Source: Candidatus Poribacteria bacterium (GTDB taxonomy: Bacteria; Poribacteria; WGA-4E; WGA-3G). Taken from it: a stretch of DNA of 64,000 nt. The notes beneath the pieces are model-generated. The model had not been told where the DNA came from. It searched no databases and was given only the letters and a program-made list of their open reading frames with translations. The stretch spans positions 96,001-160,000 of the forward strand of contig CBDBFU010000007.1 of NCBI GenBank assembly GCA_965205025.1. Reading direction: 5' to 3'. Below, piece after piece: positions 19,001 through 48,951 of this stretch (position 1 is its first letter; every line of letters begins with the position of its first letter). A program made the position numbers and the translations under genes.

Positions 19001-21517
19001 CAATACGCTTATAAACCAAATATATACCTATCTGGAACTATAATCCGTTCAACAGAATCACTCAAAGAACACGGTTCCGCACGCGCTTTCGGTATAATCC
19101 CTTTGAAGATTGATGACACATCAAACCGTTTCACAATTGAACTGGATGCTCCTAAGGAGATAAGACCCAATACTGATGTAACAGTCAAGTATACTGTGAA
19201 GGGTAAAAACAACGGATTCTCCCAGGTGACAATTGCTGCAATTGATGAAGGGATTCTCCAGTTAACCGATTTCAAAACCCCTGATGCTCATAAATATTTC
19301 TATAGACAAAGAGGGTTAAAGACAGTTGCACATGATCTATATTCAGCTGTTTTACCGGAAATCGAATCGGCACAAACAGAATCAAGTACGGGGGGTGATG
19401 GAAGTTTAGCGGCAGGTCGTGCAAAACGGCTTAATACAGCGAGTATTATGCGTGTCAAACCGGTCTCCCTCTGGTCAGGTATATTAAAAACAGATCGATA
19501 TGGAAAAGGAACAATTGACTTTCATGTACCCCAGTTTAACGGAACGTTAAGAATAATGGCTGTAGCGTATGCCAATACAAACTTTGGGTCTGCTGAAAAA
19601 CCAATAATAGTTCGTGAACCTGTGGTAATCACACCGACTTTCCCACGGTTCCTCTCTGGTGGAGATCGTATTCAATTTCCAATAAACGTGCATAACGGAA
19701 CAGGTGTAGATGGAGAATTCAATGTTGAGATACAAGCAGAAGGAGATGTTCAATTCCTATCAGATGCCGAAGCAGTTGAAGCTACAACTGAAAATCGTAA
19801 AGTTCAAAAACAGATATATATCGGGTCTGATGTTGAGGAGCAACTCTTATTTGAGCTAATCACACACGATTCAATTGGCAAAGCGACCTTCACTGTATCT
19901 GCTTACGGGAACAACGAACGATCAGAAATGAACGTCCAACTTCCTCTGCGATCAGCTGCACCACCTGTAACTGATACTGGATATGGACTTGTGAATGAAG
20001 ATGAACCGGTAGATTTCATTCTACCATCAAACTTTATTCCGGAGTCTTCTGAATTTGGTTTAACTGTTTCTCCATTCCCAGCAGTTAAATTTGCAGGTGG
20101 TATCCGTTATTTACTTAGATATCCATACGGGTGTCTTGAGCAAACAACAAGTAGGGTTTTTCCCTTACTCTATTTTAGTGATGTTGCTCGTACAGTCGAA
20201 CCTGATCTCGCTACAGATGAACGTATAGATTATTACATTACCCAAGGGATAAATAAACTTGAAAGCATGCTTACCTCCCAAAATCATTTCTCGTATTGGC
20301 CCGGTGGAGGTTATATTAATCATTGGAGTAGTGTATATGCAACCCACTTTTTGGTTGAAGCTCGAAAATCTGGATATGAGGTATCTGACCGTGTTTACAC
20401 TGCCATGCTTGATGGATTAAAAAATCAAGCAAAACAGATTTCAAGCAACCAAAAGACAATAAATAACAACAATAGATATAATGCTGAACGTGCAATCTAT
20501 GCATGTTATGTTTTGGCTGCAGCTGGACATCCTGAAAAAGGTGTGATGCACTACTTTAAGAATAACTTGTTAAGTGGTTTAACTGGATTTAGTCGCTTTC
20601 AATTAGCAGGTGCATTCGGACTTAGTGGTGATTTGGAAACAGCCCTTTCTATGTTACCTATTTCTATTCCAACATCAAACGGTGGTAAAAGACAATCTGG
20701 TAATAACTTCAATTCACCTATCCGATCTCAAGCAATTATGCTCGACGTGCTTGCTGAAGTGAATGAAAATCATCCATCAATTCCCATGTTGGTCAATAAT
20801 CTGAGTGAATCTGCATCTGAGAAGAGACGTTGGGGAACAACACAAGAAAATGCTTTTGCTTTCCTCGCATTAGGTAAAATATTAAGGAAGCAAATGGATG
20901 GTAATTACACAGGAACAATTACTATCAATGGCACCCATTTGGCTGATTTTGATTCAGAAACACCATCAGTTCGATTGGCAAATAACGATTGGGATGGGGC
21001 ACAGATAGAAATCTCCATTGAAGGTGAAGGTAATTGCTATTATTATTGGTCAGCATTCGGTATACGGCGTGATTCCTTTATTCAGGAATATGATCGAGAT
21101 TTACAGGTGCGTCGTCGTTACCTTAACCAAGATGGAACTCCATACGAAAAAGAATTCAAACATGGGGATATGGTGATAGCAGAAATCACTGTAAAAGCAC
21201 TTAACTTCAACCTTGAAAACGTCGTCGTTGTGGATATGTTACCAGCCGGTTTTGAAATAGAGAATGCAAGATTAGCATCTCGTGCCAGTATTCCATGGCT
21301 GAAAACTAATGATTTTAAGCCTGATTATGTTGACATACGGGATGATCGTATGATATTTTTCGGCACATTCCCACGTCAGAGAGAACGCAAGTTTCACTAC
21401 GCATTAAGAGCCGTAACACGTGGTGAATTCAATCTACCACCTGTATCTGCAGAAGCAATGTATGATCCAGCCAATTCCTCTGTCGCAAGTAGTGGTAAGA
21501 TTACGATTATTGATTAA
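16079..21517 (+). CDS. yfhM: Bacterial alpha-2-macroglobulin
   Basis: 1812 aa; YRPGE, EEFMPDR, thioester YPYGCLEQ, WGTTQENA, AEAMYDP; upstream of pbpC. Confidence 0.95.
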   Translation: MKTKQLYIGVVGILSLLLLIIGSLYIHSLSTGSKTRVHVKSFTPKGEKVLQWVDFTFTFSEPVIDNSLVNTELPSQAVQFTPTVEGVSRWIKRDTIRFFLESPLAPSASYTVVLSPKLHQSSLGFVITGNRKFTFLTEPFRIEKKNLEFKYTKTHAKVIGKLAFNYPVNIADLRSNLSLKLQDNVLLPYTLQPESGIAKEISIETEEIPRLLGNQSLKVQIEKGFNCIGGKIGLKQASIRTLTLAGRDRLRVTNANVDEYSGSPHIRLRFSSNVPVDTIQPYIQIDPELETQIIQRYNGVDIYGDFQRRNKYKISIQEGLAAPDGSILQKPYSVTLTIPDIPPQIRFAGNGFFLTRNQNMNLGLATTNIQNVNIQIEKVFANNLIYASKLRNWSTYTSGLGKPIHSGSLSIKSKLNEEVKTPIDLGQYLDDKYVGIFKVTARHPHNYRPRATQWVMLTDLGIISKRAGDELWVWVNSLSNLKPVSQATIKLISDNNQTLLTGKTNWQGFVEFSSVDQKTEGFTPFMLTAEKGEDISFIQLNRHQLSTGDFNVGGTAYLETGYDAFLYTSRGVYRPGERVDIAGIVRGKNNLTPPILPTHIEVTAPDGRTIREFQKNTDKHGGCEVELTLPAYAQTGGYITKMKVAEKEIGRGQFQVEEFMPDRMKVIISTDKPEYDIGAEVGMEVTAVNLFGPPATNRKVTAYYMLEAVPYVPAEKWRSFHFSSTARFEKQRMNLKETKTNDEGKVIYQVMLPEKVKAPSLLNGIFTASVNEPGGRAVTASQRAIIHPYSHYVGIKRPNDGAINRNQEVTIDYITVDKNGNSVAGRDLLLTVYKVRWNTILRRNSRGQSQYVSNSQKTTLESHPLVSTTDIGTFTFTPTEYGEYRVHIEDTASGAKSEIKMETSGWGYVPVSMENPSLLEMTLDKTAYNPGEIAKLHVKAPFPGKLLLTIEREKILSYRIVNLRGNTASLNIPVQYAYKPNIYLSGTIIRSTESLKEHGSARAFGIIPLKIDDTSNRFTIELDAPKEIRPNTDVTVKYTVKGKNNGFSQVTIAAIDEGILQLTDFKTPDAHKYFYRQRGLKTVAHDLYSAVLPEIESAQTESSTGGDGSLAAGRAKRLNTASIMRVKPVSLWSGILKTDRYGKGTIDFHVPQFNGTLRIMAVAYANTNFGSAEKPIIVREPVVITPTFPRFLSGGDRIQFPINVHNGTGVDGEFNVEIQAEGDVQFLSDAEAVEATTENRKVQKQIYIGSDVEEQLLFELITHDSIGKATFTVSAYGNNERSEMNVQLPLRSAAPPVTDTGYGLVNEDEPVDFILPSNFIPESSEFGLTVSPFPAVKFAGGIRYLLRYPYGCLEQTTSRVFPLLYFSDVARTVEPDLATDERIDYYITQGINKLESMLTSQNHFSYWPGGGYINHWSSVYATHFLVEARKSGYEVSDRVYTAMLDGLKNQAKQISSNQKTINNNNRYNAERAIYACYVLAAAGHPEKGVMHYFKNNLLSGLTGFSRFQLAGAFGLSGDLETALSMLPISIPTSNGGKRQSGNNFNSPIRSQAIMLDVLAEVNENHPSIPMLVNNLSESASEKRRWGTTQENAFAFLALGKILRKQMDGNYTGTITINGTHLADFDSETPSVRLANNDWDGAQIEISIEGEGNCYYYWSAFGIRRDSFIQEYDRDLQVRRRYLNQDGTPYEKEFKHGDMVIAEITVKALNFNLENVVVVDMLPAGFEIENARLASRASIPWLKTNDFKPDYVDIRDDRMIFFGTFPRQRERKFHYALRAVTRGEFNLPPVSAEAMYDPANSSVASSGKITIID

Positions 21518-21615
21518 CCGAAACTGTAAGATTTTTCGATGCCCAAATTTGTAGGGCAACCCGCGGAAGAGATGGAGGGTTTATCCTCTTCCCCCATCTC
21601 TTTCATCATAATCAT

Positions 21616-24066
21616 ATGAAAATTCTCTATCTACCCTTCTTCAATCAACGGGTATCTCCCATGTTCAATTATATAAAAACACATAGAATATCTCGATATT
21701 TTCTTGCAATCCCAGCAATTATACTCTTGCTTTTCTTGATTTTACATTTGTGTTTCCCACTACCTAAAGAAAAACTACACCAACCTCCATCTACAGTTGT
21801 ACTTGATAGGAATGGTGAATGGCTACGTGCATTTACTTCAACCGATGATATGTGGCGAATTACGGAGACCACACTTGAGAACGTATCCCCTCAATTCCAA
21901 ACTGCCATGTTAACATACGAAGATAGATGGTTTTACCATCATTGGGGTATTAACCCAGTTGCACTTTTTGGAGCAATGTATGATAACTTAAAAACAGGTA
22001 AGGTGGTACGCGGCGGTTCCACAATTACTATGCAATTAGCAAGACTTATGGAACCTAAGGAACGAACTATACCAAATAAAATGATAGAGATGTTCCGCGC
22101 AGTACAGTTGGAATTGACCTATAAGAAATCGGAGATATTGACATACTATTTCAATATGCTACCCTATGGTGGGAACATCGTAGGTTCTGCTGCGGCATCG
22201 CGTCTATATTTCAATAAGCCACAAAATGCTCTAAGTCTTGGTGAAGCCGCATTATTAGCAGCAATTCCAAACTCTCCAGAACGATTACGACCAGACCGGT
22301 ACCCCAACCGTGCGTTGAAGGCAAGAAAAAAAGTCCTGCAACGCATGAAAAATGCTGGGAAAATAACCGAACATCAGATGGCAGAAGCCTTACAAGAGCA
22401 TATACCTGCAGAACGTTACTCACTTCCATTTAAAGCACCACACCTTTCTCGTATACTTGCCAAAAAACGGACTTCAGATTCGTCTGGTAATTTAAAAAAT
22501 CCGTGGATTCACACAACTATTGACTCCCGATATCAGGACATTGCTGAACGAATCCTCCGTGAACGGTTACGACCTTTACAAGCACAAGGCATTTCTACTG
22601 GTGCAGTAATCGTAATGGATACAAAGAGCCATGATGTTCTGGCTATGGTAGGGTCGCACGATTTTTTCGATGCAAAATATTCAGGTCAAGTTAATGGTAC
22701 ACTTGCCATACGATCCCCCGGTTCAACGCTAAAACCTTTTATCTATGCTCTTGCTATTGACAAAGGTCTAATTACCCCCGGGACATTACTGTATGATGTG
22801 CCAGTTGACTATCTTGGATATAGTCCTGTGAACTTTGATGGGAAATACACTGGATATGTTACTGCACGAGAAGCTTTAGCAAATTCTCTGAATGTTCCAG
22901 CAGTCAATCTCTATGCTAAATTAGGAAAGAATCAACTATATTTATTTCTTCTTCGTGCCGGTATTTCTACATTCGCTAATGAAAATAAATATGGTCTATC
23001 ACTTGTGCTTGGTGGATGTGGTGTTAATCTTCTCGAGTTAACAAACCTGTATGCAGGATTAGCAAATATGGGTGTGTTTACTCCCTATAAAATCCTAAAG
23101 AAAGATGAAAATGATATTGGTATACAAAAAAGGAATAGAACTAAACCTGTTCATCCGGTTTCAACTCCTACATCAGATTATCAATTATTAACACCTGAGA
23201 CCAGTTGGATAGTGACAGAGATGTTGACAACTCTGAAACGTCCCGATTTCCCGGAAGTCTTTGAATTAACTGGTACCATGCCTAAAGTTGCATGGAAAAC
23301 AGGAACATCTTATGGACATAGAGATGCATGGAGTATAGGTTATTCACCTGATTTTACAATAGGTGTATGGATTGGAAATTTTAATGGTACCGGTTCACCC
23401 ATTTTAAGTGGTTCTGACACGGCAGCACCTATTCTTTTCTCACTTTTTACTGTTCTATCTGGAGAAAAGACAAGTCAATGGTTTAGCAAACCAGAGAAAT
23501 TAGAAGAACGTCGTGTTTGTTCATTAAGTGGTAAACTTCTCACACCACATTGTCCTACATCTACAACTGATATGTATATCCCAGGTATCTCGCCTGTGGA
23601 TAAGTGTCACATTCATAAAAATATACAAATTGATATATCGACAGGTGAAAGGTTATGTTCATCATGCAGGACTGGGAAACAATATAGAGACGAAACAATT
23701 GTTGTGTGGCCGTCAGAGGTTGCTACATGGCTAAATGCCTCAGGGTATGCTGTTCCAGTACTACCTGCACATAATGCCAACTGTACACGTCTACTAACAG
23801 GAACACCACCCATAATCCTATCCCCAACCCGTGAAACTGTATATCACATCCGTTCGGGTGTGCCGCCTGAATTTCAAAAAATACGATTGTCAGCATCAGT
23901 TTCAGGGGACACACAGGACCTCTACTGGTTTTTAAATGGTGAACTTATATCAAAAGGCGAAGCAGTTGAACCAGCATTTCTTACACCAGTTGTTGGTAAC
24001 CATCAATTAACATGCATTGATGAGGCAGGTAGATCTACAAGTCTCTCTCTTACAATTGTTCAGTAG
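21616..24066 (+). CDS. pbpC: Penicillin-binding protein 1C (start may be ATG 21661)
   Basis: EDRWF, GGSTITMQL, STLK, SLN, KTGTSYG, C-terminal PBP1C domain; canonical yfhM-pbpC pair. Confidence 0.95.
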   Translation: MKILYLPFFNQRVSPMFNYIKTHRISRYFLAIPAIILLLFLILHLCFPLPKEKLHQPPSTVVLDRNGEWLRAFTSTDDMWRITETTLENVSPQFQTAMLTYEDRWFYHHWGINPVALFGAMYDNLKTGKVVRGGSTITMQLARLMEPKERTIPNKMIEMFRAVQLELTYKKSEILTYYFNMLPYGGNIVGSAAASRLYFNKPQNALSLGEAALLAAIPNSPERLRPDRYPNRALKARKKVLQRMKNAGKITEHQMAEALQEHIPAERYSLPFKAPHLSRILAKKRTSDSSGNLKNPWIHTTIDSRYQDIAERILRERLRPLQAQGISTGAVIVMDTKSHDVLAMVGSHDFFDAKYSGQVNGTLAIRSPGSTLKPFIYALAIDKGLITPGTLLYDVPVDYLGYSPVNFDGKYTGYVTAREALANSLNVPAVNLYAKLGKNQLYLFLLRAGISTFANENKYGLSLVLGGCGVNLLELTNLYAGLANMGVFTPYKILKKDENDIGIQKRNRTKPVHPVSTPTSDYQLLTPETSWIVTEMLTTLKRPDFPEVFELTGTMPKVAWKTGTSYGHRDAWSIGYSPDFTIGVWIGNFNGTGSPILSGSDTAAPILFSLFTVLSGEKTSQWFSKPEKLEERRVCSLSGKLLTPHCPTSTTDMYIPGISPVDKCHIHKNIQIDISTGERLCSSCRTGKQYRDETIVVWPSEVATWLNASGYAVPVLPAHNANCTRLLTGTPPIILSPTRETVYHIRSGVPPEFQKIRLSASVSGDTQDLYWFLNGELISKGEAVEPAFLTPVVGNHQLTCIDEAGRSTSLSLTIVQ

Positions 24067-31299: not shown

Positions 31300-32517
31300 C
31301 TATAGTGATTTGAGGAAGGCGATAACAGCCTGCTGATTGGGTTCGGACAAATTGAAAAACGCTTCTTTTGCGTTTTGTGCTTCACCACCGTGTGCTCGGA
31401 TTGCGCCTTCAAGTGTCGTGGCGCGACCGTCATGGAGGAAAAACTGTGTCCCATCAAGGAATTCCGCGATCAAGCGTGTTCCCCAGAGCGGAGCTGTTCG
31501 CCATTCTCTCCCCGTCGCGTCACCATCAGGTCGATTATCCGCCAATTCCTCCCCCATATCATGTAAGAGAAAATCAGAATATACGTTGGCATTGACTCGG
31601 TTCAAGGCATCAATCGGAGAAGGACCCGTCATCAGTGTCGGGACGTGGCAAGAGGCACATCCGATTTCGTTGAAAAACTTATCGCCTTTTTTGACTTTTT
31701 GAGTTATTTCACCACGCGGTGGTGGCGAAAGCAATCGCATGAAAATTACGATATCCATGACTGTTGACCTTTCCACCTCTGGATCAGGAACAGTGTCACC
31801 AACGTCGGAGGGTTCCTCGTGTAAAAAATTGTTAGTTATCCCCATGTCTTGTTGGAACGCTGTTGCAGTTTGCTGAACCAAAGACGATACGGAAGCCTTC
31901 CGTCCAAATCTACCAAGTTGTTTGCCTTGTCCACCGCCAATCTCAGTAGATGGCACAAATTCGGGAGCGGTTACCCAGTGCGGTCTGCCAGAAATACCAT
32001 CGCCATCAGTATCGTCAACATCGGCATAGGATAAGATGGTTTCAAGCGGAATATTTTCAATAAGTCCCATACCGAAAACAGGTGGTGGTAGCCTTGTTGA
32101 TTTATCTACACCCATTGGAAGAGTTTCGTAAGGTGCACCAGGGATAGTTTTGTCTTGGAACTGGGGACCTCCCATGTCAAGCATGAGATTATGTCCTATG
32201 CTAAATCGGATAAGTGCTGTGTCTGGTAGTCCACGACCATTTCCGGGATGACAACCAACACAACTTGTCTGATTAAAAATGGGACCTAAGCCTTCTTCTA
32301 CTGTAAATTCCTTCATAAATGCTTCCTTTCCTCGTGCAAATATGGCACTCAGATCAGAAGGTAACATCTCAAAGGGTGTCTCAAAATCACCAAATGGTGA
32401 ATCAATATCATCGTCAGGTGGTATTAATTGAGGAATATTAATCCTACCATCACACCCAATTAAAGATGTGAGAACAATAAAAGCAACAAACAATGTGTAA
32501 AATCTCTTCAATGTCAA
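31300..32517 (-). CDS. Di-heme oxidoreductase family (DHOR/DUF1111) lipoprotein
   Basis: Lipobox LIGC; GLGP.FN..SCVGCH, DGDGISGR, GRFGRKA, GCASCH, LLHDMG, EWRTAPLWG, LHDGRA. Confidence 0.92.
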   Translation of the reverse strand: MTLKRFYTLFVAFIVLTSLIGCDGRINIPQLIPPDDDIDSPFGDFETPFEMLPSDLSAIFARGKEAFMKEFTVEEGLGPIFNQTSCVGCHPGNGRGLPDTALIRFSIGHNLMLDMGGPQFQDKTIPGAPYETLPMGVDKSTRLPPPVFGMGLIENIPLETILSYADVDDTDGDGISGRPHWVTAPEFVPSTEIGGGQGKQLGRFGRKASVSSLVQQTATAFQQDMGITNNFLHEEPSDVGDTVPDPEVERSTVMDIVIFMRLLSPPPRGEITQKVKKGDKFFNEIGCASCHVPTLMTGPSPIDALNRVNANVYSDFLLHDMGEELADNRPDGDATGREWRTAPLWGTRLIAEFLDGTQFFLHDGRATTLEGAIRAHGGEAQNAKEAFFNLSEPNQQAVIAFLKSL

Positions 32518-33087
32518 CTCCTTGTAAATATAATTAGTAAAAATCTATATATTAAGACTTGCTTAATGCAATATCATATTTGTTTCATCTGATTACAATC
32601 AACTGATAAATTGTGGCTTATTGCGATATACTGATAAAAATATCCTATCACAACAAGAAGATGAAAGTACTAATATAAGGACATATATATATCAATTATA
32701 ATATATTATAATAATTTGTCCTGTTATCAGTAAATTATACTTTGTCCAGATAAGTAAGTCAAATTAATTCTGTAGAATAGCATTCAGTATATCAGAGTTA
32801 GTGACAGTCTATTTTGTTGGAAACCTTGAATTATATAGATTACCTCTGATATAATATAAACTAACGTTCCATACTAATACCGTAAGTTCTGAACTGGTAG
32901 AAATTTAGGTTTTTACATTTCTTTTTTAATTGTAGGTAAAAATTATCTTAAGAACGCGCATCTGGTAAGATTAAAACATCAATACCGGAGGAGGCACAAA
33001 ACATATTTGTTCAAACAAGGTAACCTATAATAATGCTGCCAGTGTCAGGATAGGTTATGCCATTGAGTTTAGGAGGTAGTCAAAACA

Positions 33088-36000
33088 ATGGAATCTATAA
33101 AAAATATCATCCAGCAATGTCATCAACGACATGAAAAACCTCTTCGTCAACGTATGACTGAGCTCACACCTGCGATGTATACAAAGGATCACCCGTACCA
33201 GTATACGGTTTATTGTGCGCACCGCTACCCTGTAATGCTTCATGACTTGGAACAAGCACATATCTCTTTTATGCCTATTGGACTCACTCCTTGGAACGAT
33301 CAGGGTCCTGAGGATTATAAGGGAAATAGGTTCTTGGAACGACAGGGGATAACGGATTGGGATACTAAGCAGTGGAATACCTCATGGGGAATTAAGCAGT
33401 ATACAGGAATTCCATCGGAACGCAATGGTGCACGATGGCACAATTTGCACTTTAAGTATGAGGCAATCTGTGCAGCACCCGATGCTGTTGCCGAATGCAT
33501 TGAAGCCCTTGTCAATATTGTGAATAACCCACTTTTGACATTAGGGAAATCGGGTGGACTCCGCTTCTCCTGTAGAGTTCAAGATTATCTTCACTCCAAT
33601 ACAGAAGCATCGAAATTGTATATCTACAAAGATACCTTGAAGGTAGAACATACATATCAACGTGACGTGTATCTTGAGATATATGGTGACAAAGGACTTG
33701 CACGTTGGGATGCGCGTTATGAAATCCTCGTGGGAAACTTGTTAGACCCACCAGTCCTTGACAAAGAAGTACTCTTCGCCCCCATTGATGTACTCCGTGC
33801 GAAACTTCACGAACCTGTCCCTGATAACGCGGAAGGGAAGCAAATTGTCACCCGTGCCCCGCTATCTCTCGGTTCAGAAAACCTTGATCTGGCAAAAAAA
33901 GCATTTTTGCAGCGTGGATTTTCTTATATCCGACAAGAGGATAGTATTCACCGTTGGACACAATCTGAAGCAACTGATGATGATTATGAGGTATCACTAT
34001 TTGAAAGCGATGGGGTGGTATGGATCCGCGCGTCCGCTTCTAACAGTGAACTGCCGAATCAACCAACACGAATAACTGATGTTTGGGACGATACGGGTAT
34101 TTCCTTTCTAATAGAAAATGCAACGCCTCCTATTCACGGTAAAATGAAGCAGGTACGAAGAGATGAACTCAGTCCATTGGCGATAAAACGCCCTTCTCCC
34201 GTGTTAAGACAAGAGGATAATACCGAAAAGGATGAAATACTTGAAAGGGATGTGTCTCAGATAGAACACGTGTTTGACCAAGGTGTACGTATTCTGGGAA
34301 TCATTACAGGTATAGGACCGTGGGACAAACAAGCAGAAGAAACATATTTTTTTAAGGGTGGTGTAATTACCGTAAATACGCCAGATATGGAATTCGCAGA
34401 GGGACCGGAAAGATACTTTCAAAAGTTGAATATGCCATCGGTTGTTTATTGGAAGCCGAGAACTCACCTCTGGGAAGAAGTCAAAGATATCCCAATGCAA
34501 GAACGTATGAGTACTCCATTTAAAAATGGAAATGTCTGTGAAGATGCAGAAAGGTGTACCGCACTTGAGGAGAAAGGCGGAAACCCGGATGAAAGCATCT
34601 GTCCACAGTGTCCCGTCTATACAGTGTGCCAACAGAAGGGATACTTATCCCAATTTACCTCATCACAAAGTGCAAAAGTACAATTGTTGACAATTCCACA
34701 ACTGTTTTTTGACCCCCAATACACCGAATTAGTTAAACAGATACTTGAACGAGAAGATGAAACCGAACGACTCTGTATTATCAACCAGCAACGAACACAT
34801 AAGTTTTTTCTCGAATGTAAAATCTCAAAAAACGTTATGGAGGAATGGGCTACGATTTGGCAAGGATCCGAATTAGGAAACTTCGCAAAAACATTGCTAA
34901 GTGCATTGGATATTAAGGACAAACTTTACGGTGATGCTGTCAAAGGTATACGTGCAGTGATGCAAACCTTTGAATGGCAAGAAGAAAGGCTTATCCAGCA
35001 AATGTGTCAAGTGGTTACACACGGCAGGTTAGTCGAACAGGAATTCGTTGACCCTGATACCAGAAAGACATTGGCACGGTTCACCATCGAATTTGAAGGT
35101 GACGCATCTGCATACATTCCCTTGGATAGTAGTGCCGCAGACAAACTTAAAGAAAAGGGATTACCCGTTTTTCTAAAATCTTTTCCACTTAACGAAACCA
35201 TAAGAGTTACAATGTTAATGACACAGGCTATTGAGTTAGGTATCTTGAATACAGAAACTGTGGACAGCATTCATCATTTTCCAGCCGTATGTCGCCAGCA
35301 AGACTGGACATATTGGCACCAGCTCAAACGCTTCATCACACATTACAAAAGAGATAATGATGCACCGATCCGTTGGGATGGTGAAGTCCTACGATTTTGG
35401 GTACCACCAGTGCTACACACAAACGTAAGACGTCTTTTATTGGTTTCCTCAGTCTTTTCTGATGAACACCTTCATAGAGTGTTCCCCGATGGAAACTTAC
35501 AGACCCATTGGACCGAACCCATACCATGGAACCACGGAAGCCGAGTCTTTCAGGTTCGCACAGGCATCTATCCGTCGGAGACTATTCTTGATGACCGCAT
35601 CTGGAGTCATGTCAGACTCTCCGAAACAGGACAACGTTTCCTTCGCGGTATCCAAGCGGAAATTGAAGCGAATTTGAACGTTAAACATGGAATTATAACC
35701 AATAAAGATATTGCCAGATATTTGGATGATATCGCAAAGAAAAAGAACGTATGCTTTGTAGAGGATTTCCAAAAGATAAGAGTGTCAGACACTATTTCTG
35801 AAGATGCCGATGTCATTTGGGTGATTGGAACGCCACAACGTTCAACGAATGCTATTTGGCAGCGCGCCCAGATGTTGTACGGGAACACTAAAGAACCGCT
35901 CTCTTATAAATACGAAATAGAATCCGGTACCTACAAAGACCCGCGGCTTCAAAGTATTTACGAGGAAGATGCAATTTATTCACTCACTCAGATTATTTTA

Positions 36001-36471
36001 CAAGCTGAATTGGATCAATTGACGGATAGACGGATTGTGTTGATCACAGGGGTACCACTTCCCAACATTACTAACAGACCTGAAACATCCATCTTTGATT
36101 GGGAAGATTTTGAGATTGCCGGCGGATTAGATAAACTACCTGAGATAATCGCTACACGTGAACGCTTTGAACAAGAACGTGAAAACTTAACGGCTGAATC
36201 AAGTAGAGAGGAAGTGCAACGGGTTTTGGGTTGTTCCCATAGACAAGCAAACCGAGTCTTGCAAAGGCTTAGAGGTGGGAATATCACACGTAAAACCTTC
36301 CGAGAACAAATACTTTCCATCCTCACCAACGGAGAGAAAAAAACAGCCGAAATTACTGATGCAATCAGCGGACACCCAGAGGCAATACAACACGAACTCA
36401 GACGTCTTGTAGAGTCGGATGAAATTGTCAGAATTCGACGCGGCGTATACACTTTACCAGAAGCTAAATAA
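33088..36471 (+). CDS. Large hypothetical protein: degenerate Prim-Pol-like N-terminus, Cys cluster, helicase-like core, C-terminal HTH/wHTH
   Basis: AGGAGG RBS; 1127 aa; WGI..YTG.PS, KSGGLRF, C.DAERC...CPQCPV...C, REEVQRVLGCSHRQANR, ELRRLVESDEIVRIRRGVY. Confidence 0.7.
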   Translation: MESIKNIIQQCHQRHEKPLRQRMTELTPAMYTKDHPYQYTVYCAHRYPVMLHDLEQAHISFMPIGLTPWNDQGPEDYKGNRFLERQGITDWDTKQWNTSWGIKQYTGIPSERNGARWHNLHFKYEAICAAPDAVAECIEALVNIVNNPLLTLGKSGGLRFSCRVQDYLHSNTEASKLYIYKDTLKVEHTYQRDVYLEIYGDKGLARWDARYEILVGNLLDPPVLDKEVLFAPIDVLRAKLHEPVPDNAEGKQIVTRAPLSLGSENLDLAKKAFLQRGFSYIRQEDSIHRWTQSEATDDDYEVSLFESDGVVWIRASASNSELPNQPTRITDVWDDTGISFLIENATPPIHGKMKQVRRDELSPLAIKRPSPVLRQEDNTEKDEILERDVSQIEHVFDQGVRILGIITGIGPWDKQAEETYFFKGGVITVNTPDMEFAEGPERYFQKLNMPSVVYWKPRTHLWEEVKDIPMQERMSTPFKNGNVCEDAERCTALEEKGGNPDESICPQCPVYTVCQQKGYLSQFTSSQSAKVQLLTIPQLFFDPQYTELVKQILEREDETERLCIINQQRTHKFFLECKISKNVMEEWATIWQGSELGNFAKTLLSALDIKDKLYGDAVKGIRAVMQTFEWQEERLIQQMCQVVTHGRLVEQEFVDPDTRKTLARFTIEFEGDASAYIPLDSSAADKLKEKGLPVFLKSFPLNETIRVTMLMTQAIELGILNTETVDSIHHFPAVCRQQDWTYWHQLKRFITHYKRDNDAPIRWDGEVLRFWVPPVLHTNVRRLLLVSSVFSDEHLHRVFPDGNLQTHWTEPIPWNHGSRVFQVRTGIYPSETILDDRIWSHVRLSETGQRFLRGIQAEIEANLNVKHGIITNKDIARYLDDIAKKKNVCFVEDFQKIRVSDTISEDADVIWVIGTPQRSTNAIWQRAQMLYGNTKEPLSYKYEIESGTYKDPRLQSIYEEDAIYSLTQIILQAELDQLTDRRIVLITGVPLPNITNRPETSIFDWEDFEIAGGLDKLPEIIATRERFEQERENLTAESSREEVQRVLGCSHRQANRVLQRLRGGNITRKTFREQILSILTNGEKKTAEITDAISGHPEAIQHELRRLVESDEIVRIRRGVYTLPEAK

Positions 36472-36487
36472 TCCCTAACTAAAATAA

Positions 36488-36523
36488 CTTTGTAATCCGC
36501 GTTTTCTTTGTAATCCGCGTTTT
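36488..36523. repeat. 18-bp tandem duplication
   Basis: CTTTGTAATCCGCGTTTT twice. Confidence 0.8.
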
Positions 36524-36526
36524 TCG

Positions 36527-36573
36527 ATGAATTCCTTACTGGATGTTCGGAGAGTGTCCAGTATGGAATTCAT
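36527..36573. terminator. Long stem-loop between convergent genes
   Basis: ATGAATTCC-t-TACTGGA...TCCAGTA-t-GGAATTCAT. Confidence 0.6.
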
Positions 36574-38585: not shown

Positions 38586-38771
38586 TTTGTATTCCTTCCA
38601 AATTAGTAAAAATAGACTTTAAAAATCTATTCTATACCGTCGAAGTCCGTTATGTCAACCAATATCTTCGTTACGGATGCGTAAAGTTTTTGTCATAAAA
38701 CCTTATGCTGCTATTGTATCTGGATACCACAAACGCTACTTATACTTTCAAAGTGAGATAGAATACCTAAT

Positions 38772-38924
38772 TATAGTGAAAGTGAACAATAAATTAATAC
38801 TACATTTTCTATTGGCTCAACTTACGTTTGCGTCCTACCCCTCTTCTGTAGGAGCGACCTCCCGGTCGCGACCAGGAGGTCGCTCCTACAAGTAAAGAGT
38901 CTAATTAAATCTAAAGTTACTATA
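38772..38924. mobile_element. MITE carrying a GTAG-type REP hairpin (copy 1)
   Basis: TATAGT...ACTATA ends; internal GTAGGAGCGACCTCC-CGGTCGCGACCA-GGAGGTCGCTCCTAC; related copy at 48796-48945. Confidence 0.75.
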
Positions 38925-39320
38925 TGTTAGATGTATGGAAAAAGTGTTAATATATATTGTTCTGAGATGACTGCACTTTCACGGAAACCTTCACGGAGCA
39001 ATTTTACGAACCCTTACTCTATAAGGGTTTATAATTTAAGTGTATCAATTCTCCGTGAATCACGCATGTTAATATTTATACAACTCACAGCGTTTTTGCC
39101 AGTTTTATATGGGGTTTTATACCAAAACTTACATCCTGTCAAAGGTATTCAATTGTTCAGTTTATTCGAAGGATTTAAGAGATTTTCAATTAATAGATTC
39201 AGATCCTCTGATAGAATATTGTAGCAACTTGGGTTAGCTCAATAAACAACATGGATTTCTCGTATTTTTTGCCGATATATCAAGCTCATGTGGCACACAC
39301 TATTAGGACAGCAAACAGGC

Positions 39321-39355
39321 AAAAAGTTACACTTTTTGTCACATCGTGTGACATT
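39321..39355 (+). repeat. Left 35-bp inverted repeat (two adjacent 7-3-7 palindromes)
   Basis: AAAAAGTTACACTTTTTGTCACATCGTGTGACATT; 33/35 match to the reverse complement of 47191-47225. Confidence 0.85.
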
Positions 39356-39768
39356 TTAAATTGTGCTATACCGCCAGTACTACACGGGGTTTATAGGACT
39401 TTTTTAAGAATTCGAAAATTTGCAAAAAAGATAACTTTTATGTCTTTTACTCTTCTTCTAAACCATTAACTTGGAATGGTTTGACTAAGTAATATCCTAT
39501 CATCCATTCTGACATGATACTTCTGGTTTCTCTGCATTCTATTTTCATAACACAATTTCCAATACATAATTTTACTGTTTAAAGTCAGATATAGAAAAAG
39601 TAGAAGATATTTAGTAAGAATTTCACTTTTTTGCTTGTTATGAAAGTTGATAAAGGTTTCATGATACATCTAAAACCTTCTACTATATTGAAATCACCTT
39701 GAATATATTACTTAGCGTATCAGTTAATCAGTCAAGTAGAAGTTAGGATTTCAAATTGGTTGTTAGTC

Positions 39769-40242
39769 TTAGTACTTCAAATTTTCTTTAGTCATAAACC
39801 CTTCAAGATTTGTGCATTCAATTTTAAATTCTTTGCATATATTTGGTATGCTTGAACTATTCGGTTTTTCTTTTTCCTCTGTAACAACACATGCGTTTTT
39901 TACTTTAGCTAAAGCTATAATAAAAGGATCCGCAAAATACCCTCCTTGTAGAAACCTTTTTGCTTCTAATAGTGCCTTGAACTTTTTGGACAAAAAGATC
40001 TGTTCAACAAAAGTAGTTTCTGCTAATGTTGGAACAAGAAAAATATCTCTATTTTCTGTTGCCCATTTTAGTATCTGTTCATCGTCTTGAAATCTCACAT
40101 CAAGTTCATTTTTCACCTCTCTTGTTGATATTATTTTTTCGTAAATTACATAATTTTGTATATCACTCCAAAAGTTTAAAAACCGACTTTGAAAAATAAA
40201 GCGTAAGGTAGAAACACTACTTGTGTCAAATGCATAAGTCAT
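39769..40242 (-). CDS. DUF4411 family PIN-like protein
   Basis: YAFDTSS, EVKNEL, ADPFIIALAK..ACVVTEE...IPNIC..F.IEC; 4-bp overlap with upstream IrrE-like gene. Confidence 0.88.
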   Translation of the reverse strand: MTYAFDTSSVSTLRFIFQSRFLNFWSDIQNYVIYEKIISTREVKNELDVRFQDDEQILKWATENRDIFLVPTLAETTFVEQIFLSKKFKALLEAKRFLQGGYFADPFIIALAKVKNACVVTEEKEKPNSSSIPNICKEFKIECTNLEGFMTKENLKY

Positions 40243-41390
40243 GAATTCGCTATCCTCTGTATAAAACTATCTTCAAGTTTAGGTATATTTTTTTCCTGAA
40301 CATTAAAATAACTGGCCAATTGATCAATAGAACATTTGCCTTCATAATGTTTTTTAAATGCAAGTGTTAAAAAATGTTGGCCTAAATACATAATTTGATT
40401 ATAGTAATAGTTTCCTCCTCCTGAAGATTGGCTATTTTTTGACTTATTTTTACCTTCTTTACGCCACTTAGACAATTGTTTTTGGTAAATAGTATCGGAT
40501 ATTGCCTCTATTTGCAGAAACTTTAATAAAATCACGTGTAAGCTTACTTTATAAACATTAGCAATATCTCTTACTGCTTTCTCACTATATTCAACAGTTG
40601 CATAATGATCGGTAAAATGCTTTAATGGCACTAAAAACTCTGATGAAAACTTGTTGCAAAATACCTCATCTCTTTTATTCTTTGAGACTAGATCGCTTGT
40701 AATACCATTGTTTCCTAATAAAATATGAGCCAACTCATGAAACAAGGTAAATATTTGCCTGCTTTCAACATTTGTATTATTTAAGTAAATTACTGGAAAC
40801 ATATCATGTGTTAAGCAAAACCCGTCTACTTGATCATCATCAAAAGCCTCTTTAAAGACAAAAATGCCTTTATCTTGAATTTTATCTCTCCACCTAACAA
40901 GTGCTGATTGTGTATCTTTCCAAAAGATTTGATCCTCTACAGATATATCTAAATATTCTCTAACCTCCGCAGCTAGTCTTATAGGAGATCTGTTACGTTT
41001 GGCTTGAATAGTATCAAAAATTTTGTCCCCTTCAAAGTCCTCTTTTTCGTAAAGTTCCTCTAACGCAAGTTGTCGGGTAAAAGCTTGACGATATAGACGA
41101 TATATTTTGGGTTTCAATTTTTCAATTTCGGAAGATCGTAACATTGGCTGATCCATAATATATTCTTCTTCTGGAGGTTCTGGTAAGAAAAAAACTGCTA
41201 TTGGTCGTCCATATTTCCTCGCTAATGTTTCAAGTTGAATATAAGTTGGTGCTTTTATTCCTGCCTCCCAATCTTCTATAGTTTCTTTTTCTTTATTGAA
41301 TTCTTTTGCAATACCCTCTTCGGAATAACCTGAACGTATCCGTGCCCATTTAAGAATGTCGCAATTTACATTTGTAATTTTTTCACGCAT
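40239..41390 (-). CDS. XRE-HTH plus ImmA/IrrE metallo-endopeptidase
   Basis: LKWAR.RSG..WE.G..PT..QL HTH; RQIFTLFHELAH; E.FCNKF.SEFLVP. Confidence 0.92.
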   Translation of the reverse strand: MREKITNVNCDILKWARIRSGYSEEGIAKEFNKEKETIEDWEAGIKAPTYIQLETLARKYGRPIAVFFLPEPPEEEYIMDQPMLRSSEIEKLKPKIYRLYRQAFTRQLALEELYEKEDFEGDKIFDTIQAKRNRSPIRLAAEVREYLDISVEDQIFWKDTQSALVRWRDKIQDKGIFVFKEAFDDDQVDGFCLTHDMFPVIYLNNTNVESRQIFTLFHELAHILLGNNGITSDLVSKNKRDEVFCNKFSSEFLVPLKHFTDHYATVEYSEKAVRDIANVYKVSLHVILLKFLQIEAISDTIYQKQLSKWRKEGKNKSKNSQSSGGGNYYYNQIMYLGQHFLTLAFKKHYEGKCSIDQLASYFNVQEKNIPKLEDSFIQRIANS

Positions 41391-41879
41391 AATATACTCC
41401 CTATATCATACATTCTACAATACAACGACTATCCTGTACCGCTACACTCTTATGATTCTTTGAAGGTAATTTTGGTGACAGAAAATCAATGACTTGCCAT
41501 TCTATTTTACTCAGTTCCATCTAAAACCAACTACCAATAATTTTATATGATATAGTTTAACAGAAATGATTTAGGATTAAAAGACAAATTTATACTATTG
41601 CAATTTATGAGATATACTGTATTTTCTAATCACCATAGTTGGAAGATTATAGATTTTAAATCATTCTAAATATATTTTATGTGATTGTAATATATGGATG
41701 TTAGATGTTAGTGATTTATATTTCTTCAATTTAATTTGAAATTGTAGAATTGGGAGTTGTTGAAGGTTTGGGAATAACTTATACCATTTCTGATAATTAA
41801 AATCTCTTTGAATGTTGCACAAACTTCATGAAGATTAACTTTTTAAATCGGTAATTCTAATTCCCCAGACCCGGTATGT

Positions 41880-41960
41880 ATTGAGTCCCGTAGGGACGGA
41901 ATGTCTATAGAAAAACGTGGATACTCCATAATTGAGTCCCGTAGGGACGGAATGTTTATA
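41880..41960 (+). repeat. Hairpin doublet, 51-bp period
   Basis: ATTGAGTCCCGTAGGGACGGAATGT at 41880 and 41931. Confidence 0.85.
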
Positions 41961-42058
41961 TTTTGAAATGTAATACCATTTCTATAATATTGATCCCACA
42001 TCACTCATTGTAAAAAGAGAATTTATAGAACTAAATAACCTGCCCCAACCATTCTTCT

Positions 42059-42087
42059 TTGACACATACAGGTGTCTATGTTAAAAT
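42059..42087 (+). promoter_or_regulatory. Sigma70-like promoter
   Basis: TTGACA-17bp-TAAAAT with TG extension, ~150 nt upstream of ATG 42239. Confidence 0.55.
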
Positions 42088-42238
42088 GCTTTCAACTTTA
42101 AGTGTCAAAGTAACATAAATGGCGAAACTTTAAGCTCAGAAAAGGGCGAGAAAAGTACAGAAGGGCAAGAAACTGATCGGCGTAATGTTTTATAGAGAAA
42201 GCTCTACATAATCATCTTTTGCTGAAAGGATTATAGTT

Positions 42239-42619
42239 ATGATAGAATTTTTATCAATTTTTATCTCACTTATAGGACTGTGGTTCCAACTTGTTGGAAA
42301 GAGCGACAAAGTAAAATTCCAACGTTACAAAGAGAAAGGAACGGAGATAAAAGAGTCCGGTCAACTTGCAAAAGCTGCGAAATTTTATAAAAAAGCCCTT
42401 GATATTGCAGAAGAAGACACCCAACAAGCAGAAATATGGGAGTTACTTGTATATATTCACACAGATAGAGCAATCGGAGCGAGTAAACAATACAAGCAAA
42501 AAACAGGACATATTATGCTATCTAAGAATAACGAAGGAAAATTGGAACCATGGAATTTCGGACCAGGTAAAATATCAAGTGACTACAAACCTCCACCCAA
42601 AGAAGAACTCCTAAAATGA
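42239..42619 (+). CDS. Small membrane-anchored protein with a TPR-like helix pair
   Basis: N-terminal hydrophobic helix; AAKFYKKALDIA; AAGGA RBS. Confidence 0.6.
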   Translation: MIEFLSIFISLIGLWFQLVGKSDKVKFQRYKEKGTEIKESGQLAKAAKFYKKALDIAEEDTQQAEIWELLVYIHTDRAIGASKQYKQKTGHIMLSKNNEGKLEPWNFGPGKISSDYKPPPKEELLK

Positions 42620-42770
42620 TAGAAGTTTAGGAATAATTAGTAAGCAAAGTGTTAGTTGCACTGAGACCTACTAAATTAGCTGACAGTATAGTATTATCCA
42701 CATTTACTACATACTTTATCATCAGACGCTGATAAAGCATCAAAACATTTGATGACTTTGTAAATTTATC

Positions 42771-42821
42771 CAGGACTTACGCAGTTTTAAATATTGCGTA
42801 ATGTGAATATTGCGTAATGTG
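42771..42821. repeat. IS-end-like CAGGACTTACGCA plus a 16-bp tandem duplication
   Basis: CAGGACTTACG also at 30739; AATATTGCGTAATGTG twice (42790-42821). Confidence 0.55.
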
Positions 42822-42880
42822 CGGGAAATCTGTGAGTTTTTCATCTGACCACATTCAAAATATCAACGCTTCTGCAATAT

Positions 42881-43288
42881 TTAAACGACTTTGTATGCTA
42901 TTTTGATGTTTTGTGCCCGTAAGAACTCACATATATCTTCAATGGGTTGTAGAAACTGCTTTGTAATAATAAATAAGCGTAGATGTTTAGAGTAATCTTT
43001 TGATACTGTTTTATGTTTATAATACTTCATGTAACCAATGGCACAATCTAACACTTGTCCTACAGATTCGCGAATTCTGTCATTCGGATGATCACCAATC
43101 TTGTTTTTAACTTCGACGATTACAATTGAACCTTTGGAATCCTTCCCTACTAAATCGGGTTTTACATGTTTTCTACTATTATATGTTCTTGGAATATGTG
43201 TTACAGAATCATCCCAACAAATATCAGGATACCATCTGTTAATATTATACTTAACTTCGTTTAGATATTTATCATGTACTTCACTCAT
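42881..43288 (-). CDS. Stand-alone PD-(D/E)xK nuclease, similar to the NucS/EndoMS C-terminal domain
   Basis: KPDLVGKDSKGSIVIVEVK...ESVGQVL. Confidence 0.72.
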   Translation of the reverse strand: MSEVHDKYLNEVKYNINRWYPDICWDDSVTHIPRTYNSRKHVKPDLVGKDSKGSIVIVEVKNKIGDHPNDRIRESVGQVLDCAIGYMKYYKHKTVSKDYSKHLRLFIITKQFLQPIEDICEFLRAQNIKIAYKVV

Positions 43289-43337
43289 ACTTACATAATC
43301 CTTTTTATAAGGGTTTATGCATTTCCTCTTTGTCTAT

Positions 43338-43439
43338 AGCCCCAGCGGGGCGAAAGGTGTGTAGAAACGCCATAACTCCCAAAGTCCAAGCCCCAGCGGG
43401 GCGAAAGGTGTGTCGCTTAAAATTGTCCAAACTATAGTA
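43338..43439 (+). repeat. Hairpin doublet (51-bp period) with one MITE end
   Basis: AGCCCCAGCGGGGCGAAAGGTGTGT at 43338 and 43389; AAATTGTCCAAACTATAGTA at 43420. Confidence 0.85.
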
Positions 43440-43443
43440 GTAA

Positions 43444-44856
43444 TTACAACACATCTCTTACAGCGTGGGGTAATTTAGGTAATACGTCGTTATAGTAATC
43501 TTGAATCTGGTATATCTGTAAACGTGGGGCAGTGAATTCGTAACTGGGATGCTCATACATTCCAGATTTTGCTGCCTCTGCTTCCATTCCAGGAGAGGGT
43601 GGTGTCGTAACCAAAAATACACCCATCTCTGCCTCTTCATTCTCCATTGCAGTTCGGAAATCACGGATTTGTCCGAGTGTGTATGTTCCGGCTTTTATCT
43701 GTGCAACCACTGTTCCATAAGCCTGTCTACCTTGTTCTCTACCTAATGGAAATCTCATAGTTCCGTCAATGCCACCATCACCACCTCGTCTTACATTGGC
43801 TTTGAATTTCAGCGCGTGTGTAACAGTCCACTGTTCGAAACCATGTGGCTCGGTTCGTGCAAGTTCTAATGCTTGTTCCAGACTTTCTGGTGTACCTGCA
43901 AGTGTGATTAGGTTTTGTAATTGCGGGAGATACTTCTCTATTTGGAGTTTTACTGCACCTGTAGCAAGATAGGTTAAATCAATTCCGATCCAATGCCTTC
44001 CCAGTTCTTCAGCTGCCATGAGCGTTGTTCCACATCCACAGAATGGGTCAAGAACGAAGTCATCTTTGTTTGATGAGGCAGCGACGATCCGTTTGTAGAG
44101 TTCTAACGGTTTTTGTGTGGGGTAGCCAGTGCGTTCCTTAGATGATGGCATAATAGGTTGCATTACCCACCAGTCTTCAGGATGTTTTCCTTTTTCGTTC
44201 ATATCGTAGTTGTCATAAACTCTGTCCCCTCTGAATGCTTTTGCCGTGTATCTTAACCTTTCTTGGCTCTCTTGTGAATAAGGCATTCTAATGTCGTCAA
44301 CATTAAAAGTCATATCTTTGGATTGGGAGTATCTAAAAATAATATCGTGCTTTCTTGAGAAATCATTTTTTGGAACTCCACCACCCCTATAACACCAGAT
44401 TATCTCATTTCTAAAATGCATCGCTCCAAACACAGAATCCAAGATAATTTTGAGATAGTGGCTTGCTGTTGGATCGCAATGGAGGTATAGGCTACCGGTT
44501 GGCTTGAGTATCCTGTGCATTTCTACAATTCTTATTGCCATCATGACAAGATATGCCATCATTGGTGTTTCGTTTAGAAATTTGCGTAATCCCTCAATAG
44601 TATCCCCTACCTGTCCACCAACACCAACAACCAATTCATCGTATGTAATTTCAGCTTCAGTCCCCCAGTTCCATGTGTCAGTAAATGCTTTAACCAAGAC
44701 ATCGGGTTGACGTCCCTGTTCGTCCCGGTATGGTACAAAATAGTCGCGTTTGGAATTGAAGGGTGGGTCGGTTGCAATGAGATCTATACATTCGTCAGGG
44801 AAGTTTCGCATTTCGGTGAGGTTATCACCACGTATTAGTGTTCGGTTTGGGTGCAT
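43444..44856 (-). CDS. N4/N6 DNA methyltransferase (beta class) fused to an Mrr-like endonuclease domain
   Basis: DPPF before FCGCG; GYPTQKP; C-terminal FEQW..GGDGGIDG...AQIK. Confidence 0.9.
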   Translation of the reverse strand: MHPNRTLIRGDNLTEMRNFPDECIDLIATDPPFNSKRDYFVPYRDEQGRQPDVLVKAFTDTWNWGTEAEITYDELVVGVGGQVGDTIEGLRKFLNETPMMAYLVMMAIRIVEMHRILKPTGSLYLHCDPTASHYLKIILDSVFGAMHFRNEIIWCYRGGGVPKNDFSRKHDIIFRYSQSKDMTFNVDDIRMPYSQESQERLRYTAKAFRGDRVYDNYDMNEKGKHPEDWWVMQPIMPSSKERTGYPTQKPLELYKRIVAASSNKDDFVLDPFCGCGTTLMAAEELGRHWIGIDLTYLATGAVKLQIEKYLPQLQNLITLAGTPESLEQALELARTEPHGFEQWTVTHALKFKANVRRGGDGGIDGTMRFPLGREQGRQAYGTVVAQIKAGTYTLGQIRDFRTAMENEEAEMGVFLVTTPPSPGMEAEAAKSGMYEHPSYEFTAPRLQIYQIQDYYNDVLPKLPHAVRDVL

Positions 44857-45097
44857 CTACGTTATCCTTCGGAATCTGGAAGTTTTCTACTTATTAATAC
44901 TGTCTTTATTTCTTGTAAGTTATCGTTAATTTGATTCAATGATTTCGACTTACTTTCAATAAGATTGTTATTATACCACAATCTTGTTTTAGAGAGTGGC
45001 CTGAATTTCCGATGGCAGTACAATGCTTTAATATTTAATATAGCACAAATCATGTATACATGTTAGAATACTTCTATTAGGTTATGTGAGGTGTCCC

Positions 45098-48945: not shown

Positions 48946-48951
48946 TATCCA

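Follow-up and report, generated by a model that had tools for sequence, protein, structure and literature searches.

What does a bacterium do with a primase–helicase that seems to have lost both of its active sites, and why does it keep the gene? The question is raised by a 64,000-nucleotide stretch of DNA (hereafter the window) from a sponge-symbiont bacterium, Candidatus Poribacteria (assembly GCA_965205025.1, contig CBDBFU010000007.1, positions 96,001 to 160,000), which encodes at window positions 33088..36471 a protein of 1127 residues, here called P0001. A first-pass annotation had described it as a solitary, apparently dead relative of primase–helicases, domesticated from a mobile element. 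We find that P0001 is a pseudoenzyme descended from a protein that joined an archaeo-eukaryotic primase (AEP), an XPD-like helicase and helix-turn-helix (HTH) modules, and that it is kept by selection and has its own conserved promoter. Its parts are listed below; family counts out of 50, here and later, refer to 50 sequences picked from the 120 best hits, a sample that leans towards the clade of P0001.

33202..33819, + strand: Prim-Pol (AEP) domain, residues 39-244, by fold match and motif columns
33871..34107, + strand: small alpha/beta domain, residues 262-340, a former zinc-binding domain by the ligand columns of relatives
34153..34194, + strand: conserved linker motif VRxxxLSPLAIKRP, residues 356-369, with S362, P363, L364 and R368 invariant in 50/50
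34267..36144, + strand: XPD/DinG-like superfamily 2 (SF2) helicase core without ATPase motifs, residues 394-1019, by Foldseek and VIA
34297..34332, + strand: Walker A relic GIITGIGPWDKQ, residues 404-415, in which GIGPWDK aligns with xTGxGK[NDST] of relatives
34537..34629, + strand: Cys cluster C484-x5-C490-x14-C505-x2-C508-x5-C514
34774..34788, + strand: Walker B relic, CIINQ for hhhDE, in which IINQQ aligns with hhDE of relatives
36193..36270, + strand: first HTH, residues 1036-1061, seen as helices in the model
36280..36468, + strand: winged HTH, residues 1065-1127, by AbiEi_4 match and VIA

The domains were assigned mainly from predicted structures. P0001 was modelled at full length with AlphaFold on a 50-sequence alignment (mean predicted local distance difference test score (pLDDT) 69, predicted template-modelling score (pTM) 0.62), and its N-terminal 345 residues were folded separately (pLDDT 89.5, pTM 0.82). 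Residues 39-244 match the Prim-Pol domain of pRN1 ORF904 (PDB 1ro2; VIA Z 12.2, root-mean-square deviation (rmsd) 3.4 over 175 residues; 3m1m, Z 11.9), and Foldseek pairs the domain with 1rni (probability 1.00, E 2.8e-3). The next fold matches were the phage NrS-1 Prim-Pol (Z 7.2) and the LigD polymerase (Z 5.3), with unrelated proteins at about Z 5, which is also the level of the weak matches found for residues 262-340. For the full-length model, the best Foldseek matches were chains of XPD, DinG, TFIIH-XPD, CasDinG and DdmD, from E 4.5e-8 (helicase core: 4.5e-8 to 2vsf and 4.8e-8 to 6fwr); residues 394-1019 superpose by VIA on residues 29-611 of Thermoplasma XPD (2vsf) with Z 10.4 and rmsd 6.0 over 450 residues, in a model of mean pLDDT 69, and both RecA-like lobes and the arch/Fe-S insertions of the XPD/DinG fold were recovered. 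In the C-terminal tail, Pfam HTH_23 is below threshold at residues 1039-1064 (E 0.12), a position at which relatives P0282 and P0284 score significantly, while residues 1065-1127 resemble winged-helix domains (ZBP1 Z-alpha, BigR and SqrR; VIA Z 9.4-10.2) and match Pfam AbiEi_4 at residues 1099-1124 (27.8 bits, cut-off 25). PADLOC matched only AbiEi models, within the last 30 residues. The linker motif, where model pLDDT is low, is also kept in distant relatives. Scans of P0001 against NCBIfam and PHROGs gave nothing meaningful, and a profile search of PDB sequences returned four matches (E 0.062-0.87), none of them credible. The domain-by-domain fold comparison thus recovers both the Prim-Pol and the SF2 folds; a Prim-Pol-type N-terminus (with WGIKQYTGIPS at residues 100-110) and a C-terminal pair of HTH and winged HTH had both been proposed at first pass, and every motif string quoted then is present in the translation.

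Motif loss was judged on an alignment of P0001 to relatives with intact motifs, taken from a profile search of 1.84 billion representatives that yielded 605 at E ≤ 1e-3. When 26 distant relatives were scanned against Pfam, four matched BT4734-like_N (an AEP family) and two PriCT_2; relatives P0223 and P0284 gave sub-threshold DEAD/ResIII matches at the Walker A region. At AEP motif I, where the relatives read hhDhD/E, P0001 has WHNLHF (in WHNLHFK, residues 117-123) with N119 and H121, and the metal ligands of this motif (hhhDhD/E) are not present. D119 is found in 45 of the 50 family members and an acid (D or E) at position 121 in 23; only the five closest sequences share N119 with P0001. The acids of motif I are required for metal binding in AEPs, according to the excerpted text of PMC5862659. 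The small domain retains 0 of the 4 ligands of the zinc signature C..H...C.C seen in relatives. Within the helicase core, motifs I, II and VI are kept in the aligned relatives and missing from P0001: GIGPWDK occupies the TGAGK[NDST] column, IINQQ replaces the Walker B acids, and QIILQAEL stands for QxxGRxRL at motif VI (ILQAEL aligning with xGRxRL). Motif III reads SSV in P0001 and SAT in relatives. The degenerate DxD and Walker A that the first-pass annotation had pointed out therefore lie at true motif positions. The same cannot be said of its third sign of a dead site, the missing motif II histidine (GGLRF): this position, R159 in SGGLR (KSGGLRF, residues 154-160), is arginine throughout the family (50/50), even where every other motif is kept, so the arginine is a family trait and no sign that this copy is dead. 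Relative P0204 has SGGQH in this column.

As judged from the alignment, then, P0001 is without the primase motif I acids, the zinc ligands and helicase motifs I, II and VI, and because the motif I acids and these helicase motifs are missing it is predicted to be unable to hydrolyse ATP or make primers by canonical chemistry. The remains of the active sites are nevertheless far from eroded: the most conserved stretches of the protein are the former active-site strands WH.L.F, SGGLRFSCR and WDARYE (the last, residues 207-212, holding motif III, WD208), four cysteines and the HTH helix RQANRVL. W117, H118, R159, D208 and R210 are invariant in 50/50 members, as are W207 and D208 of motif III.

The Fe-S domain of XPD and DinG sits between helicase motifs I and II, which is where the Cys cluster of P0001 lies, in a region with pLDDT below 50. 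C484, C505, C508 and C514 are invariant in 50/50 family members and in 16/16 distant relatives, and C490 is present in 49/50. The cysteines are placed as in the XPD/DinG inserts to which they were likened at first pass, and may bind a 4Fe-4S cluster or zinc. The cluster is absent from a short form of the family, about 955-975 residues long, that lacks residues about 435-526 (the whole cluster) and 642-723; it occurs at G000:C15:455866-458739 (L029), where G000 is the genome of P0001, at L045 and L046, and as similar matches in G007, G012, G014, G015, G047 and G051. Since the short form recurs in several species, the cluster-less variant is also maintained.

P0001 is not the solitary protein it was first taken for: its genome holds four copies, and the family has 1346 database hits. 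By motif content this family is a mosaic of intact-motif and motif-less copies rather than uniformly dead. In the sample, Walker A (G.GK[STN]) is kept in 8/50, Walker A and Walker B together in 8/50, the GR of helicase motif VI in 11/50 and DxD/E in 23/50; all four motifs (DxD/E, Walker A, Walker B and the arginine of motif VI) survive in six, and 27, including P0001, keep none of them. None of the four copies in G000 keeps Walker A, two keep DxD/E and one is without the whole Cys-cluster region, in an assembly that is 95% complete. Dead copies thus occur with no intact Walker A paralogue in the same genome (four of four in G000, the single copy in G017 and both in G005), whereas G003 has intact-motif and dead copies side by side. 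Some family copies are truncated or split. A more distant relative, in the same genus, is encoded at L085:9489-12575(+) in G010: 1028 residues long and 29% identical, with all primase, zinc and helicase motifs intact and a resolvase-type HTH, it adjoins NACHT and SIR2_2 genes and many small open reading frames (ORFs), and is possibly an active, element-borne form.

The named family members are Candidatus Poribacteria. A search with P0001 matched 14 of 18 genomes from its genus, but not one of 12 genomes that represent seven other genera in the order; at E ≤ 1e-100, 34 of 40 genomes of the genus were matched. A profile run over 151 genomes of the phylum found the family in genera g1 (33/37), g9 (48/57) and g6 (3/20), and in 0/36 genomes of 19 other genera. 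Within a single genus, some species have no copy and others as many as about 11. P0001 belongs to a lineage-specific multigene family of Poribacteria. Searches of metagenome contigs (queries P0001 and A5) and of genome contigs (query P0183) gave no confirmed related loci, and no description of the family was found in the literature on Poribacteria primases.

Whether the gene is merely decaying was addressed by comparing it with the orthologues for which DNA is available, from G035 (84% identity), G043 (80%) and G007 (74%). Over the whole gene, the ratio of non-synonymous to synonymous substitution rates (dN/dS; Nei-Gojobori) is 0.13-0.19 in all six pairs, with dS 0.45-0.85. The AEP domain (0.10-0.18) and the helicase lobes (0.10-0.19) are constrained alike, the HTH tail has the lowest values of the regions (0.06-0.16), and the arch-like insert at residues 641-735 gives 0.25-0.61. 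Every domain of P0001 is under purifying selection, and because dN/dS is this low among the four orthologues, with all domains constrained, the gene is not decaying. The frame and the putative signals for its expression are these:

32826..32855, + strand: promoter-like site, TTGAAT, 18 nt and TG-extended TATAAT, from a consensus scan
33071..33076, + strand: Shine-Dalgarno sequence AGGAGG, 11 nt 5' of the ATG, read from the sequence
33088..36471, + strand: P0001 ORF with ATG start, an uninterrupted frame of 1127 codons

All four orthologues (4/4) keep TTGA and TGnTATAAT unchanged upstream of the gene, in surroundings that are themselves unalignable. The long open frame and strong ribosome-binding site had been noticed at first pass, and retention by selection, part of the domestication proposed there, is supported by the dN/dS values. 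About 190 nt between promoter and ribosome-binding site (window 32886-33060, approximately) are extra and found in this genome's copy only; the leader is about 45 nt long in the G035 and G007 orthologues.

We infer that the ancestor of P0001 served a mobile element. Its domain order matches that of mobile-element primases in the excerpts of PMC5862659, and the intact-motif relative in G010 adjoins NACHT and SIR2 genes. No integrase or phage gene was present among the 19 neighbouring ORFs in 18-50 kb of the window, as first noted, and flanking terminal inverted repeats around P0001 were sought and not found. P0183 had no match in phage or plasmid collections; P0223 was matched there via its AEP/PriCT part only, over at most 18% of the query, and searches with these two proteins found the helicase part in no phage or plasmid record. 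Of the original idea of a domesticated mobile-element replication protein, the descent from a Prim-Pol, SF2 Fe-S-type helicase and HTH protein, the loss of the catalytic residues and the retention all stand, while the mobile origin is putative.

The closest solved fold for residues 39-244 belongs to the pRN1 ORF904-type replication proteins, which share with P0001 the order of primase, NTPase-type core and winged helix. ORF904 is active, however, and its helicase belongs to superfamily 3, whereas P0001 is without DxD/E and all ATPase motifs and has an XPD/DinG-like SF2 core. With the Fe-S helicases XPD, Rad3, DinG and CasDinG, P0001 shares the SF2 fold of residues 394-1019 and the four-Cys insertion between motifs I and II; it differs in lacking the Walker A lysine, the DE(A)H box and the motif VI arginines, in its Cys spacing (C-x20-C-x2-C-x5-C), in the fusion of the core to AEP and HTH modules, and in having no sequence-level similarity to any PDB chain by profile search. 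XPD within TFIIH is a structural factor in transcription, with an ATPase that is dispensable for its promoter-proximal role; that setting is eukaryotic and multi-subunit, and the comparison with P0001 is an analogy only. From the AbiEi antitoxin (PF13338) of type IV toxin–antitoxin systems P0001 has only the DNA-binding winged helix, the match covering its C-terminal 26 residues; it is without the AbiEi C-terminal domain, and no AbiEii nucleotidyltransferase toxin is encoded in the 19 neighbouring ORFs. The same domain order as in P0001 is described for primases of integrated mobile elements that join AEP, PriCT or zinc-binding domain, ATPase and winged helix (the PrimPol-PV1 supergroup and the BT4734-like family) in the excerpted text of PMC5862659 (Kazlauskas et al. 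2018), where SF2 appears in a figure legend only, 'DinG' is not mentioned, and neither an XPD-like Fe-S helicase partner nor a chromosomal, dead, multi-copy family is described. The fusion of an AEP primase to an XPD/DinG-type Cys-cluster helicase appears to be undescribed in the literature on archaeo-eukaryotic primases, XPD and mobile genetic elements.

If P0001 no longer catalyses, its surroundings may indicate where it acts. We compared 42 loci from 12 related genomes, each with a copy that has its N-terminus, hand-picked from the family match tables; the count of divergent neighbours ignores unclassified ORFs under 160 residues. The copy is divergent from its upstream neighbour in 35/42 and stands head-to-head with a giant secreted repeat-protein gene in 22/42 (16 immediately adjacent), with at least one such case in 15 of 27 sequence groups; a first set (13/22) and a replication set (9/20) agree. 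Domains of the facing genes are leucine-rich repeat (LRR), cadherin, lamin-tail, Ig, dockerin or Por_Secre_tail, and symbiosis-associated genes of the LRR, cadherin and lamin-tail type are a hallmark of Poribacteria in the excerpts of PMC3909097. The background, 4330 crude ORFs from G000 only, has 22% of ORFs divergent from the upstream neighbour, 3.9% of the repeat-protein class and 0.74% facing a repeat-protein gene head-to-head, which would predict about 0.3 of 42. The intergenic regions of the family are long (149-2523 bp) and AT-rich (GC 0.24-0.40). P0001 itself faces a different gene:

31300..32517, − strand: di-haem oxidoreductase/peroxidase (DHOR) gene, Pfam DHOR 1.3e-61

A DHOR gene is also head-to-head with a family member in G007, G003, G006, G043 and six further loci; the pairing is the same in G007 and, in a sister clade, is found in at least nine other genomes.

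The layout of the genes inclines us towards a function in the intergenic region that P0001 shares with its divergent neighbour, and the reading we favour, at a probability of roughly 0.45, is that P0001 is a non-catalytic DNA-binding protein acting there, possibly as a regulator. Its ancestor would have been a replication-type protein of four modules, namely a Prim-Pol primase, a zinc-binding domain, an XPD/DinG-like four-Cys helicase and HTH plus winged-helix tails. P0001 would now work without catalysis as a nucleic-acid binder: it would be anchored to double-stranded DNA by the HTH modules at its C-terminus, and single-stranded or distorted DNA would be gripped by the groove of the helicase, which carries the Cys-cluster wedge, and by the still conserved basic pocket of the primase (H118, R159, R163, R210 and D208). 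The likeliest site would be the AT-rich intergenic region shared with the divergent neighbour, the DHOR gene for P0001 and a giant secreted repeat-protein gene for most paralogues, where the protein could control transcription or DNA opening. Several observations weigh against this proposal. The HTH recognition helices are nearly invariant across paralogues, which makes paralogue-specific operators unlikely. The neighbour also varies within the orthologue group of P0001: DHOR is present in two of five, and in the other three its place is taken by a SpoIIE/cNMP phosphatase, by an ORF without a name and by a type ISP enzyme on the same strand, a poor fit to a locus-specific regulator. A look-up of RNA runs listed none that contains the gene. 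A de novo k-mer search revealed no robust shared upstream DNA motif, the best k-mers being partly REP-like and partly owing their counts to orthologous loci. The neighbour statistics were obtained for picked loci in kin genomes, set against a one-genome background with crude ORF calls, and the Cys cluster may bind zinc, not Fe-S.

Two unlikely alternatives look to mobile elements. As a dominant-negative replication initiator, the dead protein could still recognise related plasmid- or phage-like elements that use the active form, at their origin or iterons, and block their replication, a decoy form of defence. Active-looking relatives in the same genus (one of them a neighbour of NACHT and SIR2 genes), the wide swings in copy number, the AbiEi winged helix as sole PADLOC match, and an ImmA/IrrE-DUF4411 pair and a methylase-Mrr fusion 3-8 kb downstream of P0001 would all suit such a role; yet no known defence gene is adjacent, the DNA-reading helices have not diversified across paralogues as an arms race predicts, constraint extends over the whole protein including the dead cores, and no related element was found in phage or plasmid collections. 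It is similarly doubtful that these are Rep genes of integrated plasmid-like elements carrying the giant repeat-protein genes as cargo, the head-to-head arrangement being an old rep-ori-cargo layout of which only repression of that region remains. The Rep-type domain order (in the parts of PMC5862659 cited above), the long AT-rich intergenic regions, the association with accessory secreted-protein genes, the patchy distribution and the transposase genes near some copies are what this would predict, but P0001 is flanked by neither an integrase gene nor terminal repeats nor target duplications, gene contexts differ within a single orthologue group, and all domains have been under long-term purifying selection. 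A bolder and decidedly improbable reading is that the family serves the giant secreted 'eukaryote-like' repeat-protein genes of sponge symbionts as a system bound to their loci: each copy would stand head-to-head with such a gene and bind an origin-like, AT-rich region between the two, where intact paralogues would open and prime DNA and so locally amplify or diversify the neighbour, and dead ones would serve as switches or repressors. If true, this would be a primase–helicase counterpart to retroelement-driven diversification and a new regulator class for symbiosis factors.

The remaining explanations concern the protein itself. Many pseudoenzymes act as non-catalytic subunits of an active paralogue, and the six sampled members with all four motifs, together with genomes such as G003 that hold both kinds, would provide partners; we consider this a slim prospect for P0001, given four copies without Walker A in a genome assembled to 95%, and G017 and G005 with dead copies only. 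Very unlikely is an enzyme of altered chemistry, in which H118, N119, H121 and D208 bind a different metal or the helicase core translocates without canonical motifs. The former active-site strands are the most conserved AEP parts, with five invariant residues, which would suit such an enzyme; the motif I acids needed for AEP metal binding (PMC5862659, same excerpts) are missing, however, as are the lysine of Walker A, the DE of Walker B and the arginine of motif VI. Lost catalytic motifs and the truncated or split copies elsewhere in the family might suggest a decaying relic without function, but the open frame of 1127 codons and the conserved promoter speak against this, and dN/dS of 0.13-0.19 in 6/6 pairs at dS up to 0.85 contradicts decay, to which we give next to no weight.

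The upstream regions contain two kinds of repeated word. The k-mer ATTGTAGG was present upstream in 12 of 46 groups, compared with 10 of 526 controls, and was rejected as an operator, being a repetitive extragenic palindromic (REP)-like element followed by GC hairpins. This element, tATTGTAGG and then a GC-rich hairpin, is enriched upstream of family genes, in the same 12/46 groups (10/526 control intergenic regions), for example at L042, L043, L038 and L069. The k-mer ACTTAATATG is found in 8/46 against 2/526, partly from orthologous loci, and is not solid. An AT-rich word, ACATATTAAGT, often forms inverted pairs or palindromes 225-310 nt upstream of family genes (L028, L030, L044, L062, L069 and L072; as a 10-mer in 8/46 groups against 2/526, some loci being orthologous), and is a weak operator candidate.

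Ten loci from ten genomes, mostly DHOR-adjacent, form a sister clade in which each gene has a single in-frame TGA at a codon aligned with the nearly invariant W455 (L007:3445-3552(-), L008:2833-2940(+), L009, L011, L032, L049, L050, L051, L053 and L055). With dS up to 1.6 and dN/dS of 0.07-0.19 on both sides, the TGA is of long standing and both halves have been maintained. Over the next 45 nt there is almost no synonymous change, and an invariant small hairpin (tacctgtgggagcaggt) starts 14 nt downstream. Both selA and selB scored above cut-off in 5/5 TGA-clade genomes tested, and Rfam found no selenocysteine insertion sequence (SECIS) or other family at the TGA. The site is a candidate for recoding, by Trp readthrough or selenocysteine insertion, or for a stable two-gene split, and may be a new recoding site.

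Just 3' of the P0001 stop codon lie two repeats:

36488..36523: perfect 18-nt tandem duplication, unit CTTTGTAATCCGCGTTTT
36527..36573: 17-nt inverted repeat

Together (36488..36573) they are a possible terminator between convergent genes; a terminator scan did not flag them. Further downstream, window positions 38600-44900 are AT-rich (GC 0.31-0.35) and look like a small defence or toxin–antitoxin islet, with genes for an ImmA/IrrE-type HTH-M78 peptidase and a DUF4411 protein (39769-41390, −) and for a fusion of N6/N4 methylase and Mrr-like nuclease (43444-44856, −). Elsewhere in the window, a bacterial alpha-2-macroglobulin gene (1812 residues) is followed by a PBP1c-type penicillin-binding protein gene (16079-24066), and a full-length serpin gene (48916-50202) lies 25 kb from this pair; all relate to protease inhibition.

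Should the DNA-binding reading hold, P0001 would show clearly how, in a bacterium, an enzyme of replication has become a DNA-binding protein without catalysis, and the series from fully intact to fully dead paralogues, preserved within one genus, would allow the steps of pseudoenzyme evolution to be read directly. For Poribacteria, the positional link to LRR, cadherin and lamin-tail genes would provide a testable handle on the control of symbiosis-associated genes.

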